Part shown: positions 5,773 to 11,457 of the stretch, one piece after another
How the letters are laid out: every line of letters begins with the position of its first letter
Numbering within the stretch: position 1 is the first letter of the stretch
DNA from: Escherichia coli
GTDB lineage: Bacteria; Pseudomonadota; Gammaproteobacteria; Enterobacterales; Enterobacteriaceae
NCBI RefSeq assembly: GCF_030013595.1
Contig: NZ_CP122768.1
DNA length: 64,000 nucleotides
Direction: 5' to 3' (one strand)
Made by a program: the position numbers and the translations under genes
The notes under the pieces: generated by a model
The model's database searches: none
What the model was told of the DNA's origin: nothing
The model's input: only the letters and a program-made list of their open reading frames with translations

Positions 5773-6471
5773 TTACTCGCCCTGTTGGCGTTGCAGTCTT
5801 GCTAATACATCCTGGGCGCTACTTTTATTGCTACCGCCTATTCCGGCTTCCGCCAGCTTTTCATCAAGATCGCGACCGTCTGCGACTTTTTCCAACTGTG
5901 CAGCAGCATCCAGGCGAGCCTGACGTTCGGCCTGACGCGTTTGCAGGCGTTTTAAGGATTCTGCCGCTGTCGAAACGCTGGAAGATGCGCCAACGGTAGA
6001 GGTCGTTACAGCCTGTTGTGCACGCTGCATGGCTTCAGTAGCTTTAACGACTTCCATTTGCTGCTCAAACTGAGCGATACGCTGCGCTGTCGCTGTAACT
6101 GCTTTTTCCACGCCATCACGAGAGACTTCCAGATTCGACAACACTTGCTCTTCAGCGGTAATGAGATTCTCAAGGCGCGCGATTTCTTCAGCAACTTCGT
6201 TAATCAACGACGGATTAACGTTCTTGCTTAACGCTTCCAGCGCACGGGCTTCCAGACTGGCTTTGCGCTCACGTAAATCTTTCAGCTTATCGTGACTTAA
6301 TTTCACCCGCGCCAGCAGATCAACGCGAGATTTTCCGGCTTTATCGAGTTCAGCTTTAGCGTCACGAATATGCTGTTCCAGCATGCGCACGCCCTGGGTT
6401 TCTTCAATGGATTCTTCCGCCTGAGAGATAAACGATTTCCCCAGCGTAAATAAACTTTTTAAAATTCCCAT
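5773..6471 (-). CDS. yjfJ: PspA/IM30-family coiled-coil protein YjfJ, 232 aa
   Basis: Intact ORF; long heptad-like Ala/Glu/Arg/Leu/Gln-rich helices typical of the PspA/Vipp1 family. Confidence 0.85.
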   Translation of the reverse strand: MGILKSLFTLGKSFISQAEESIEETQGVRMLEQHIRDAKAELDKAGKSRVDLLARVKLSHDKLKDLRERKASLEARALEALSKNVNPSLINEVAEEIARLENLITAEEQVLSNLEVSRDGVEKAVTATAQRIAQFEQQMEVVKATEAMQRAQQAVTTSTVGASSSVSTAAESLKRLQTRQAERQARLDAAAQLEKVADGRDLDEKLAEAGIGGSNKSSAQDVLARLQRQQGE

Positions 6472-6489
6472 AAATACCCGTCCTTGTAA

Positions 6490-6891
6490 TTAGAGTGAAT
6501 ATTCTTCTGTAATTTCAGCCAGATCCAATGCGTTATCTACCAGCGAGGTTATCTCAAGCAGGATATCTTCAAGAGAAGATTTAAGCGATAACGCCCCGAA
6601 AACAATGTAATACTCTTCATGTTGCACGCTGGAGATCCCTACCGATGACAACGGCATCATCTTCTGATTTCTTAATAAGAAGGTATTAAATTCATCTGGA
6701 TTGCTGATACTACTTACCGGACAAATAAAGGTTTCGATAATCATTTGGCGGGAAGTAAATAGAATATTGATTTGCAAATCGCCATAATCATTCATTTTAA
6801 TAATTAATGCGTTCTCGCCATTTGTTACATCAATATTTTGTTCAGGTACAGTTTGCAGCGCCGTCGCCAGCGCCAACGGATTCCATGTCAT
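6490..6891 (-). CDS. yjfI: Uncharacterised protein YjfI (DUF2170 by recollection), 133 aa
   Basis: Intact ORF, ATG at 6889-6891; first gene of yjfIJKLMC; AT-rich promoter-like sequence upstream at 6892-6970. Confidence 0.8.
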   Translation of the reverse strand: MTWNPLALATALQTVPEQNIDVTNGENALIIKMNDYGDLQINILFTSRQMIIETFICPVSSISNPDEFNTFLLRNQKMMPLSSVGISSVQHEEYYIVFGALSLKSSLEDILLEITSLVDNALDLAEITEEYSL

Positions 6892-6971
6892 ATATTATTC
6901 CATATAAATTAAGTTTAAATATTAATAAAATGAATATTTGCAGTACGTAATTATCTTACCAGCTATAGACA

Positions 6972-7680
6972 AATAAATATCCTCCGGCATAGCCGGAGGT
7001 TTTTCAAATGCGCCTGTAAGGCTCTGTTACCAGCCGCGCCCTAACAGGCGCATACGATCTGACATTTGCATTCAACTTCGTTACTTACGGCCCGTAAACG
7101 GGCTGCCCGGATATGGAATCGATAACTGCTCCCCCATTTTATCCTCTTCAAGCTGGTGCTTTATGTAGTCCTGTATCTTCGCCGTGTTCTTACCCACCGT
7201 ATCGACATAGTACCCTCGGCACCAGAACTCCCTGTTTCTGTATTTGAATTTCAAATCCCCAAACTGCTCGTAAAGCATCAGACTGCTTTTCCCTTTCAGA
7301 TATCCCATAAAGCCGGATACGCTCATTTTGGGTGGGATTTCCACAAGCATATGGATATGATCTGCGCAGCACTCTGCTTCCAGAATCCGTACGCTTTTCC
7401 ACTCACACAGCTTTCTCAAAATACTGCCTATCGCCCTACGCTTCTCTCCGTAAAACGCCAGTCTTCGGTATTTCGGCGCAAAAACTATGTGATATTTACA
7501 GTTCCAGCGGGTGTGCGCTAAGCTCTTTTCGTCCCCCATTGGGACCCCCTTTTGATTTCTTGTTTGACACTTGCAGTTGCCAGACCGCAAGGTGTTTTAA
7601 CAAATCAAAAGGGGTTTTAATAACTGGCTCAAAGCTGAAAGCTTTCCGGAACCCCCAGCCTAGCTGGGGGTTTTCTGTGC
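6972..7680 (-). mobile_element. IS200 insertion sequence (IS200/IS605 family), about 707 bp; ends estimated to within roughly 10 bp
   Basis: Contains tnpA (7081-7539); subterminal hairpin 7652-7670 (cccccagc/gctggggg); stem-loop 7546-7614 pairing the Shine-Dalgarno sequence; hairpins 6981-6999 and 7008-7053 at the other end; rlmB-to-yjfI spacing is about 710 bp longer than I expect for the native intergenic region. Confidence 0.8.
7081..7539 (-). CDS. tnpA: IS200 transposase TnpA (Y1/HUH single-strand transposase), 152 aa
   Basis: ORF 7081..7590 trimmed to ATG at 7539 (MGDEKSLAHTRWNCKYHIVFAPKYRR...HIHMLVEIPPK...); HxH motif and catalytic Tyr region recognisable. Confidence 0.9.
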   Translation of the reverse strand: MGDEKSLAHTRWNCKYHIVFAPKYRRLAFYGEKRRAIGSILRKLCEWKSVRILEAECCADHIHMLVEIPPKMSVSGFMGYLKGKSSLMLYEQFGDLKFKYRNREFWCRGYYVDTVGKNTAKIQDYIKHQLEEDKMGEQLSIPYPGSPFTGRK

Positions 7681-7682
7681 AC

Positions 7683-7709
7683 AAAAAAAAACCATCCAAA
7701 TCTGGATGG
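7683..7709 (-). terminator. Rho-independent terminator downstream of rlmB
   Basis: Minus strand reads gccatccagatttggatgg followed by nine T, about 20 nt after the rlmB stop. Confidence 0.6.
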
Positions 7710-7729
7710 CTTTTCATAATTCAGAGGAA

Positions 7730-8461
7730 CTAGCTGCGCTGTCGCACCGCTTCAAATAAGCAAATCCCTGTCGCCACAGAAACGTTCAGGGAAGAAACGC
7801 TTCCTGCCATTGGGATGCTGATCAACTCGTCGCAATGTTCACGAGTCAGGCGACGCATACCTTCACCTTCCGCGCCCATCACCAGTGCCAGCCGTCCGGT
7901 CATTTTGCTCTGATAAAGTGTATGATCCGCCTCACCTGCCGTACCGACGATCCAGATATTCTCTTCCTGCAACATACGCATGGTGCGCGCAAGGTTAGTC
8001 ACCCGAATCAGCGGAACACTTTCTGCCGCGCCGCAGGCTACTTTTTTCGCCGTGGCGTTGAGCTGTGCGGAGCGATCTTTCGGCACAATCACCGCATGAA
8101 CACCAGCGGCGTCCGCGCTACGCAGGCACGCGCCGAGGTTGTGCGGATCGGTTACGCCGTCGAGGATCAGCAGGAACGGTTGATCGAGCGAAGCGATCAG
8201 ATCCGGCAGATCGTTTTCCTGATACTGCCGTCCTGGCTTCACACGGGCGATAATGCCCTGATGCACGGCACCGTCGCTTTTCTCGTCGAGATACTGACGG
8301 TTCGCCAACTGGATAACCACGCCCTGGGACTCAAGGGCGTGAATCAGCGGTAACAGACGTTTATCTTCACGGCCTTTTAAAATAAAGACTTCCTGAAAAC
8401 GTTCAGGGGCGCGCTCCAGCAGGGCCTGCACTGCGTGGATGCCGTAAATCATTTCGCTCAT
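7730..8461 (-). CDS. rlmB: 23S rRNA (Gm2251) 2'-O-methyltransferase RlmB, 243 aa
   Basis: Intact ORF ([26 protein letters not shown]...); SpoU/TrmH-type sequence; downstream of rnr. Confidence 0.9.
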
Positions 8462-8551: not shown

Positions 8552-10993
8552 TCACTCTGCCACTTTTTTCTTCGCCGCACGCTTCGCTTTGGTCGCTGCA
8601 GCTATTTTCTGCGTTTTCGCCGATGGCTTTTTCGCTTTTCTCGCGTCTTTCTTCGCCGCTTTCGGCTTCGTTTTTTTCTCGCCGCGGAAGGCGCTGTCTG
8701 GCTCAAAGTTTACCTTTTTACCGACCTGACGACGCTTGCCGCCTTTTTTGCCTGCATCGCCTTTTTTCGCTTTCTCGCGCGCCGTTTTACCGACGTTGCG
8801 CGGTGCGCGTTCGCTGGAGATCAGGCTAAAGTCGATTTTACGCTCGTCCATATTAACCGCTTCGACGCGAACTTCCACGCGATCGCCCAGGCGATAAGTC
8901 TGGCCGCTGGATTCACCCATCAGGCGTTGCCCTACCTGGTCAAAGCGATAGTAGTCATTGTCCAGCGAAGAGACATGGACCAGACCATCAATGAACAAGT
9001 CGTCCAGACGGACGAAGAAGCCAAAGCCAGTGACGCTGGAAATTACGCCTTTAAAGACGTTACCTACCTGGTCGAGCATGAAGTCACACTTCAGCCAGTC
9101 AGCTACATCGCGTGTTGCTTCGTCGGCACGACGTTCCGCCATCGAACAGTGCTGACCCAGTTGCAGCATCTCTTCCATCGAATAATGGTAACCGCCGGTT
9201 TCAGTAGTGTTGCCCTGATGCCCCTGCTCTTTCGCCAGCAGATACTTAATGGCGCGGTGCAGCGTCAGGTCAGGATAACGACGAATCGGCGAAGTAAAGT
9301 GCGCATAGGACTGCAATGCCAGACCGAAGTGACCACGGTTTTCCGGATCGTAAATCGCCTGTTTCATCGAGCGCAGCAGCATGGTTTGCAGCATTTCTGC
9401 GTCAGGACGATCGGCAACCGACTCCAGCAGCTCCGCGTAGTCACGCGGTTCCGGCTTGTTACCGCCCGGCAATTCCAGCCCCAGCTCCGCCAGCACTGAA
9501 CGGAAAGAGGTAATTGCTTCGGTGCTCGGCTTGTCGTGAATACGGAACAGTGCTGGTTCCTTGGCTTTCTCAACGAAACGCGCCGCCGAGATATTCGCCA
9601 GAATCATACACTCTTCAATTAATTTGTGTGCGTCGTTACGCTGGGTCTGTTCGATACGTTCAATACGGCGTTCAGCGTTGAAAATGAACTTCGCTTCTTC
9701 GCTCTCAAATGAGATCCCACCGCGTTCTTCACGGGCTTTATCCAGCACTTTATAGAGGTTATGCAACTCTTCGAGATGCTTAACCAGCGGGGCGTACTGC
9801 TCGCGCAGATCCTGATCGCCCTGCAGAATATGCCAGACTTTGGTGTAGGTCAGACGTGCGTGAGAGCTCATTACCGCTTCATAGAATTTGTAGCCAGTCA
9901 GGCGGCCTTTCGACGAAACCGTCATCTCGCACACCATACACAGGCGGTCTACCTGCGGGTTGAGCGAACACAGACCGTTAGAGAGCACTTCCGGCAGCAT
10001 CGGGATAACCTGCGAAGGGAAGTACACCGACGTACCACGGTTACGCGCTTCTCTGTCCAGCGGTGTTGGCGGACGCACATAGTAGCTGACGTCGGCAATC
10101 GCGACCCATAAACGCCAGCCGCCGCCGCGTTTTTTCTCGCAGTAAACTGCATCGTCAAAGTCACGGGCGTCTTCGCCATCAATGGTGACCAGCGGTAAAT
10201 CGCGCAGATCGACACGGCCCGCTTTTGCTTCTTCCGGCACTTCTTCTTTCAGCCCGGCAACCTGTTGCTCAACGGCCTGCGGCCAGATATACGGAATTTC
10301 ATGGGTACGCAGAGCGATATCAACCGCCATGCCGGTGCCCATATTGTCGCCAAGTACTTCGACGATTTTACCCACCGCTTTGGTACGGCGAGTCGGGCGT
10401 TGGGTCAGTTCAACTACGACCACAAAGCCCATCCGCGCGCCCATGATCTGATCGGGCGGGATTAAGATATCGAAGCTCAGACGGCTATCGTCAGGAACCA
10501 CAAAGCCGACGCCCGCTTCGGTAAAGTAGCGACCAACAATCTGGCTGGTTTTTGGCACCAGTACGCGGACAATACGCGCTTCACGACGACCTTTACGGTC
10601 AGCACCCAGCGGCTGCGCCAGCACCTGATCGCCATGAATGCAGGTTTTCATCTGCTCGCTGGAGAGATACAAATCATCTTTACGCCCTTCAACCCGCAGA
10701 AAGCCGTAGCCATCACGGTGGCCAATAACGGTACCTTTCACCAGGTCGAGGCGTTCCGGCAGCGCATAGCACTGACGACGAGTGAAGACCAGTTGACCAT
10801 CGCGCTCCATCGCGCGCAGGCGGCGACGCAGGCCTTCAAGCTGCTCTTCGCCTTCAATGTGCAGTTCTACCGCCAGCTCATCACGGCTGGCCGGTTTTTC
10901 ACGTTTGGTTAAATGTTCGAGGATAAATTCCCGACTAGGGATGGGATTCGCGTATTTTTCAGCTTCGCGTTCCTGGAATGGATCTTGTGACAT
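8552..10993 (-). CDS. rnr: Ribonuclease R (RNase II family exoribonuclease, Lys-rich C-terminal tail), 813 aa
   Basis: ORF 8552..11035 trimmed to ATG at 10993 ([20 protein letters not shown]...); S1 domain and basic tail. Confidence 0.9.
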
Positions 10994-11031
10994 CTCGGTT
11001 CCTCCGTTGTCATCTCTGATGAAGATTTTCG

Positions 11032-11457
11032 TCACTCCACCAGCAATAATTTATAAAGCGGTTGATTCTCTTCAACCAAATCGGCAAGCGTGTAGTTATC
11101 CAGTTCCGTAAGAAAACTTTGCACGGCCTTAGAAAGCGCCTGTTTCAACCGACAGGCAGGTGTAATGTGGCAAAACTCACTGCTGCAATTCACCAGCGAT
11201 AAGGGCTCCAGCTCGCGCACCACATCACCAATACGTATCGCACTCGCCGGTTTACCCAGACGAATGCCGCCATTTTTTCCACGAACAGCAGTCACGTAGC
11301 CGGCACGACTAAGTTGATTGATTATTTTGACCATATGATTACGGGAGACGCCGTAGACGTCAGTCACTTCAGAAATACTGGTCATCCGCCCTTCTGGCAA
11401 TGACGCCATGTAGATCAGCGCACGTAATCCGTAATCAGTGAAACTCGTTAACTGCAC
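11032..11457 (-). CDS. nsrR: Nitric-oxide-sensing Rrf2-family repressor NsrR, 141 aa
   Basis: Intact ORF ([20 protein letters not shown]...); three Cys near C-terminus; overlaps rnr start. Confidence 0.9.

Follow-up and report, generated by a model that had tools for sequence, protein, structure and literature searches.

A recent IS200 insertion in the T-tract of the rlmB terminator of Escherichia coli, and the terminator-like targets of its relatives

IS200 is known for how seldom it moves, and its transposition is extremely rare in the laboratory (PMC4513863). The left-end hairpin of the element is a bidirectional terminator that stops ~85% of incoming transcripts (PMC4513863, PMC5435999), and a stem-loop, Hfq and the antisense RNA art200 add to the repression of tnpA (PMC4513863, PMC5435999). 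Within the transposase, Y125 is the catalytic residue, and the Y125F protein is catalytically dead (Ellis et al. 2015, PMC4513863). For IS608, pairing of a guide sequence with the cleavage site has been established (Barabas et al. 2008, as described in a paper that cites it). Elements of this kind are also associated with terminators, an association available as a bulk statistic and read as a means of limiting transposase expression (preprint 10.1101/2025.07.22.666184). This bulk association is the only earlier report of a terminator preference of IS200 or IS1541 that our search found; older primary insertion-site papers lay outside the search, and we claim no priority for the target rule described below. 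The present analysis contributes base-level ends for one such element, proof of its recency and of recurrent hits at its site, and a quantified pattern of terminator homing that explains its place and orientation.

A complete IS200-group element between rlmB and yjfI

We analysed a 64,000-nucleotide stretch of an E. coli genome (contig NZ_CP122768.1), which we call the window. All of the relevant genes lie on its minus strand: rnr (8552-11035), rlmB (7730-8461), a 152-aa open reading frame (7081-7539), yjfI (6490-6891) and yjfJ (5773-6471). The spacer between the rlmB stop (7730) and the yjfI start (6891) is 838 bp in the window and 126 bp in IS-free E. coli (A20, MEW, HCP5S3_I2), indicating an insertion of exactly 712 bp. 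An earlier, sequence-only reading of this DNA had proposed an IS200 between the rlmB terminator and yjfI, co-oriented with the flanking units rnr-rlmB and yjfIJKLMC, in a spacer of ~840 bp where ~130 bp was expected. The empty-site comparison and the gene map agree with that proposal. Its length of ~707 bp, however, was an underestimate, and of its two ends, 6972 and 7680, the first is exact and the second falls 3 bp short. The features of the element and its flank are:

6972-7683, minus strand: complete IS200-group insertion sequence of 712 bp, TGTGCACAG...GGAGGATATTTATT (empty-site comparison, Nord1 copy and right-end flanks).
7684-7710, minus strand: native rlmB intrinsic terminator, hairpin GCCATCCAGATTTGGATGG followed by T8 (identical in empty-site genomes).
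7650-7672, minus strand: perfect left-end hairpin AACCCCCAGC-TAG-GCTGGGGGTT, IS nts 12-34 (fold and Rfam; position as in PMC4513863).
7546-7614, minus strand: 5'UTR stem-loop in which the Shine-Dalgarno sequence AAGGGGGT (7544-7551) is paired with CCCCUUUU (RNA fold, inverted repeat and Rfam alignment).
~7531-7620, plus strand: putative art200 antisense RNA (placed by homology, from the description in PMC4513863).
7081-7539, minus strand: tnpA, encoding a 152-aa Y1 HUH transposase, stop codon included (Pfam and NCBIfam matches; HUH motif H61-I-H63, Tyr125).
7008-7053, minus strand: second, interior right-end inverted repeat with 14-nt arms, 93% complementary (inverted-repeat search), past the tnpA stop codon and ahead of the right-end hairpin.
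6981-6999, minus strand: perfect right-end subterminal hairpin CCTCCGGC-TAT-GCCGGAGG (fold; missing from empty sites).
6972-6980, minus strand: 9-nt tail ATATTTATT that ends the element (follows the right-end hairpin; the flanks of 43 copies diverge there).

The open reading frame at 7081-7539 matches Pfam Y1_Tnp (PF01797, E=8e-37) and the NCBIfam transpos_IS200 equivalog (NF033573, 144 bits against a cut-off of 55). On the minus strand, 7549-7672 is an end-to-end match to Rfam STnc490, the model of the IS200 left end with its 5'UTR (146 bits against a gathering score of 56). The art200 antisense RNA and the 5'UTR-derived sRNAs of the IS200 group would arise from this conserved region. The sequence-only reading had allowed that tnpA might be too dissimilar for IS200, or that everything outside 7081-7539 might be native. 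These scores lie far above the family thresholds, and both 6972-7080 and 7540-7683 are missing in IS-free strains. The 152-aa Y1 transposase, the subterminal hairpins and the stem-loop sequestering the Shine-Dalgarno sequence, all of which it had named, were recovered by the profile matches and folds. It had also considered the hairpin at 6981-6999 possibly native. This hairpin is the right-end hairpin of the IS, and its absence from every empty site rules out a native origin.

We then fixed the ends of the element at the level of single bases. On the gene strand, the empty spacer reads GCCATCCAGATTTGGATGG-T9-GTCTATAGCTGG, with the junction T9|GTCTATAG, and the window carries a clean 712-bp insertion, T9-GTGCACAGAAAACCCCC...CCGGAGGATATTTATTT-GTCTATAG. 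Common T and GT residues give six formally possible registers, and the junction is ambiguous by 1-3 nt within T residues. We adopted the register T8|IS|T-GTCTATAG, which places the element at 6972-7683, because three observations converge on it. First, among 43 distinct IS200/IS1541 copies, similarity at the right end is lost directly after ATATTTATT (...GGAGGATATTTATT): 24 copies continue with T, 7 with G, and 6 each with A and C. Second, the Nord1 copy between yddM and fdnI reads T7-[TGTGCAC...TTATT]-ATTGCG where the empty site of EcPF20 reads CGCCA-T7-ATTGCG. Third, with nt 1 at the T of 7683, the left-end hairpin falls at nts 12-34, matching the published IS200 numbering (PMC4513863). A 711-bp element starting at G (GTGCAC) is disfavoured by the Nord1 pair and by this numbering. 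Beyond the shared T residues, target duplication is absent in the comparison of occupied with empty sites at two loci (rlmB-yjfI and yddM-fdnI), and an inverted-repeat search of the element found none joining its two ends. The insertion site, 80 bp upstream of yjfI, falls inside the T-tract of the rlmB terminator.

The regulatory anatomy of the left end is of the IS200 type. The 5'UTR stem-loop folds at -45.6 kcal/mol (z = -4.2), with CCCCUUUUGAUUU pairing with AAAUCAAAAGGGG and thereby burying the Shine-Dalgarno sequence AAGGGGGU. With nt 1 at 7683 it occupies nts 70-138, and the published stem-loop occupies nts 69-138 (PMC4513863). The left-end hairpin has a single occurrence within the 64-kb window. 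As a separate observation, the Rfam STnc490 model lies on the tnpA-sense strand and takes in the left-end terminator hairpin (7549-7672). Ellis et al. 2015 (PMC4513863) define STnc490/art200 experimentally as an antisense RNA of 90 nt against the 5'UTR, and the model fits this RNA in neither strand nor extent. Two weak Rfam matches, rnk_pseudo (21.7 bits) and plus-strand STnc490 (21.5 bits), were set aside as chance matches to the terminator and hairpin.

Membership of the IS200 group is further indicated by a single Y1 HUH open reading frame of ~150 aa with HUH and Y125, by hairpins at both ends, and by the lack of terminal inverted repeats and of target duplication. The open reading frame list of the element (6972-7683) contains no tnpB. 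Over its full length the window IS is ~96% identical to IS200C and 86.7% identical to IS1541A. IS200C is a name assigned by PGAP, and the isoform criterion of ISfinder is at least 95% nucleotide identity to a named reference. The window variant itself is annotated only as an "IS200/IS605 family transposase" (WP_000502112.1, Nord1).

IS200 is notoriously immobile in the laboratory (PMC4513863), as might be expected if the element were a dead relic or a non-autonomous derivative. We consider this very unlikely, however, since the window copy retains an intact open reading frame with HUH and Y125, both ends and all regulatory structures, and since copies identical to one another are found at different loci in other genomes. 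These data establish the identity, the ends and the intactness of the window IS.

Recency and recurrent use of the rlmB site

The nearest relatives of the window have an empty site. The flanks of the IS are 100% identical to those of HCP5S3_I2 over 2,971 bp and 99.98% identical over 4,315 bp; the corresponding values for MEW, also empty, are 98.96% and 100%. The Nord1 copy between yddM and fdnI is identical to the window IS at 712 of 712 positions. Identity to a copy elsewhere, together with an empty site in the nearest relatives, indicates that the insertion is recent.

We next asked how often the site is occupied. Among 5,426 complete E. coli genomes, four carry an IS200 at rlmB-yjfI (MS 69-1, AVS0465, APEC E956 and GmM077), and the window's variant is found there in none. 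All four copies belong to the IS200C lineage, differ from the window IS at 27-31 of 712 positions, and sit in the same T-tract in the same orientation. The junction of the E956 copy is offset by one T, with one T fewer on the right, the result of either slippage in the homopolymer or insertion at an offset position. The flanks of the five carriers, counting the window, differ from each other by 0.6-2.9%. Because the other carriers hold a different IS200 lineage at the same site, these alignments indicate that the rlmB T-tract has been hit independently at least once, and probably several times.

Excision of IS200/IS605 elements is precise and would restore T9|GTCTATAG, so an ancestral insertion at rlmB-yjfI could have been lost from the genomes that now appear empty. 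However, the site is empty in 5,422 of the 5,426 complete genomes, among them the nearest relatives, whose flanks are identical, and the window IS is identical to a copy elsewhere yet 4% off IS200C at the same site. An ancestral insertion is therefore extremely unlikely. As judged from the alignments, the insertion is a recent IS200 polymorphism and an ordinary mobile-element event. We assign a probability of about 93% to the reading that a full-length, apparently functional IS200 (Nord1 variant) recently inserted into T9 of the rlmB intrinsic terminator. With its ends defined at base level, this polymorphism is a useful strain marker.

The yddM-fdnI spacer is also occupied in many strains. 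An IS200 lies after the fdnI terminator in 309 E. coli genomes, some of which have the window variant (100%) and others IS200C (97.4% over IS and flanks). The two lineages could have come to this site by repeated insertion or by gene conversion.

Insertion behind terminator hairpins and T-tracts

To describe the targets of related elements, we searched for exact matches to the 21-nt left-end hairpin in a set with one genome per species. At least 120 stretches were recovered. They span Yersinia, Vibrio, Brenneria, Dickeya, Edwardsiella, Pluralibacter, Budvicia, Tatumella and Oxalobacter, and also Mailhella/Desulfovibrio, Bacillota, Peptococcaceae, Elusimicrobiaceae and Saccharibacteria. In very distant taxa the hairpin, CCCCCAGCTAGGCTGGGGGTT, is often found at contig ends, and its true spread is wider than the matches listed.

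A T-rich tract outside the element abuts the left end in 122 of the 122 flanks listed. Among the distinct left-end flanks listed, base -1 is always T and base -2 is nearly always T. A GC-containing hairpin with a T-rich tail ends at the IS in 117 of the 122 (96%, among the matches listed). In the same DNA, the same detector is positive at 2.25% of random positions and at 20% of the ends of ordinary runs of at least five T. The 40 nt upstream of the left end have a mean folding energy of -18.6 kcal/mol, compared with -7.3 kcal/mol at random positions. The upstream hairpins vary between sites, and in the two empty sites examined (rlmB-yjfI and yddM-fdnI) they are native. Being site-specific and present in empty sites, they are host terminators that lie outside the IS, which rules out the terminator hairpin as a part of the mobile element. 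These data define a precise target rule for IS200/IS1541: a host terminator hairpin followed by a T-tract, always on the strand of the terminator. Since the T-tract is on the terminator's own strand, the IS is co-oriented with the preceding gene, which explains its co-orientation with rnr-rlmB in the window. The rule likewise explains why IS200 and IS1541 are nearly always found between genes, in the orientation of the gene upstream, and why they are phenotypically silent.

Tandem copies of IS1541 are present in Yersinia pestis NCTC5923 (stretch L082, ~300-370; L083, 2661-3391; L085, 12605-13335). Here the second copy starts with its left end immediately behind the first copy's right-end hairpin and ATATTTATT tail, suggesting that the right end of the IS resembles a preferred target.

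How might such a target be chosen? By analogy with IS608, TnpA would move the top strand (tnpA sense) as single-stranded DNA and paste it 3' of the T-tract. The inverted-repeat search picked up a cis-complementary arrangement of T-run, GTGCAC and AGAAAA. Most subfamilies conserve GAAAA ahead of the left-end hairpin, and a similar GAAAAA stands before the right-end hairpin. On the IS608 model, the GAAAA directly 5' of the left-end hairpin, like its right-end counterpart, may act as the guide that pairs with the T-tract. The preceding terminator hairpin would be a strong additional determinant and may mimic the IS right end, itself a hairpin with a 9-nt T-rich tail.

A rival account is that the T-tract alone is targeted, that the hairpin itself goes unrecognised, and that purifying selection leaves copies where they are harmless. 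The invariant T at -1 and the near-invariant T at -2 fit this account, as does an A-tract guide, which could specify only TTTT. In addition, a hairpin already precedes ~20% of the ends of ordinary T>=5 runs, a proportion that would be higher for intergenic runs. Survivorship could indeed account for part of the hairpin association, as insertions just after terminators are the least harmful. However, 96% against 20% is a large excess, and the element is oriented with the terminator strand in every case. The tandem IS1541 copy placed directly after another copy's right-end hairpin and tail, and the two IS200 lineages in the same rlmB T-tract, also count against it. On balance we think it less likely than not that the T-tract and selection are sufficient.

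The broader proposal, that members of the IS200 group are true terminator-homing transposons and that the IS in T9 might alter yjfIJKL control, is tentative, and we hold it at clearly less than even odds. If terminator homing is correct, TnpA would read the host terminator hairpin and T-tract on single-stranded DNA, with pairing by the A-tract, and a conserved "safe-harbour" insertion rule would extend across many phyla.

Two side observations concern Dickeya. In Dickeya undicola 2B12 (stretch L080, 680-745), a 41-nt perfect palindrome, GTCTATAGAAAACCCCCAGC-TAG-GCTGGGGGTTTTCTATAGAC, lies between two convergent terminators (T6 and A7). It looks like two IS200 left-end starts placed back to back with one shared hairpin and without a transposase gene. 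In the window, the native octamer GTCTATAG after T9 (6963-6970, minus strand) also opens the IS200-like left end GTCTATAGAAAACCCCC of Dickeya (L079 and L080). This match could be due to chance or could be an old footprint; further similarity was not seen.

Transcription around yjfI and comparison with known systems

The insertion lies between rlmB and a proposed promoter of yjfI:

6925-6920 (TTAATA) and 6902-6897 (TGGAAT), minus strand: proposed constitutive sigma-70 promoter of yjfI with a 17-nt spacer (Shimada et al. 2014, PMC3946193).

This promoter is intact, 46 nt downstream of the IS. A consensus promoter scan of 6400-7800 called no sigma-70 promoter, and its position therefore rests on the literature. 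Co-transcription of nsrR-rnr-rlmB-yjfI(J) is on record (literature including PMC3946193). The ninth T of the rlmB terminator tract is nt 1 of the IS, and hairpin and T9 are kept whole. Because IS nt 1 is itself a T, the rlmB terminator is predicted to be preserved, with its hairpin and full T9. Both this terminator and the adjoining IS left-end hairpin fold strongly. Read-through from rnr-rlmB into yjfI should fall, as the model adds the left-end terminator and then the right-end hairpin with its T-rich tail in series. The core promoter of yjfI is predicted to be untouched, with the sequence upstream of -80 replaced by the right end of the IS. Seen from yjfI, the native hairpin and T9 are swapped for an IS hairpin and ATATTTATTT.

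The same tract has been linked to expression of the downstream genes. Heat-evolved E. coli K-12 shows strong yjfIJKL up-regulation, and the mutation linked to it is a (T)9->8 deletion at rlmB/yjfI +47/-80 (PMC12492005, Table S1/S2). The deletion is at K-12 position 4,410,053, the authors regard it as a promoter mutation, and yjfIJKL is described as a "heat tolerance" operon (PMC12492005). The affected tract corresponds to window positions 7683-7691, which are the U-tract of the rlmB intrinsic terminator. The insertion thus splits a T-tract already implicated in yjfIJKL control, and we offer an effect of the insertion on yjfI and yjfIJKL as a hypothesis. The window strain and the empty-site strain HCP5S3_I2 form a natural pair for studying how the spacer regulates yjfIJKL. 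Natural strains vary between T8 and T9 at the rlmB tract. YjfI (6490-6891) has a sub-threshold NCBIfam match to the Pseudomonas biofilm regulator BacA (94 bits against a cut-off of 300), and the BacA paper also mentions yjfI (PMC10948618).

Selection might have favoured the insertion because it rewires yjfIJKL expression, for instance through a change in the T9 tract. The up-regulation associated with (T)9->8 in the same tract (PMC12492005) and the recurrent hits at the site are in line with such selection. However, an IS200 at this site is very rare (5 genomes), target preference by itself predicts recurrence, and the IS introduces terminators, with no outward promoter known in it. Selection for rewiring is therefore improbable, and the reading of a recent, ordinary insertion into the T-tract is preferred.

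Among described elements, IS200 of Salmonella enterica resembles the window IS in organisation. Like it, the window IS has a single 152-aa tnpA, a left-end terminator hairpin at nts 12-34, a stem-loop sequestering the Shine-Dalgarno sequence AAGGGGGU at about nts 69-138 and a strong STnc490 match, and both lack terminal inverted repeats and target duplication. It differs in length, 712 bp against a quoted 707 bp, and the likeness is to the published description of the Salmonella element. With E. coli IS200C (MS 69-1, AVS0465, APEC E956, GmM077) it shares length, architecture, ends, the rlmB T-tract and orientation, but differences at 27-31 of 712 nt (~96% identity) mark it as a distinct lineage. 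IS1541/IS1541A of Yersinia pestis has the same left-end hairpin 21-mer and the same right-end hairpin with its tail, and it too inserts after terminator-like hairpins and T-tracts. In IS1541, however, the left end starts with GTGCCCAG instead of GTGCACAG, and in Y. pestis its copy number is much higher and tandem copies are present.

IS608 and ISDra2 likewise have a Y1 HUH transposase and subterminal hairpins, and insert 3' of a short target abutting the left end. These family paradigms show an orientation bias towards the lagging-strand template. GC skew, negative on the window plus strand throughout, places the top strand of this single IS copy on the same template. In contrast to the window IS, IS608 and ISDra2 carry tnpB and target TTAC or TTGAT; the target of the window IS is a T-tract after a host hairpin, and its guide pairing is inferred. 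A comparable site choice is known from bacterial introns of group IIC (class C), which home to the 3' flank of intrinsic terminator stem-loops. They are retroelements with an RNA ribozyme and a reverse transcriptase, unrelated to IS200 in sequence and chemistry. The element described here, an intact IS200-group insertion sequence, belongs to a kind that is already known.
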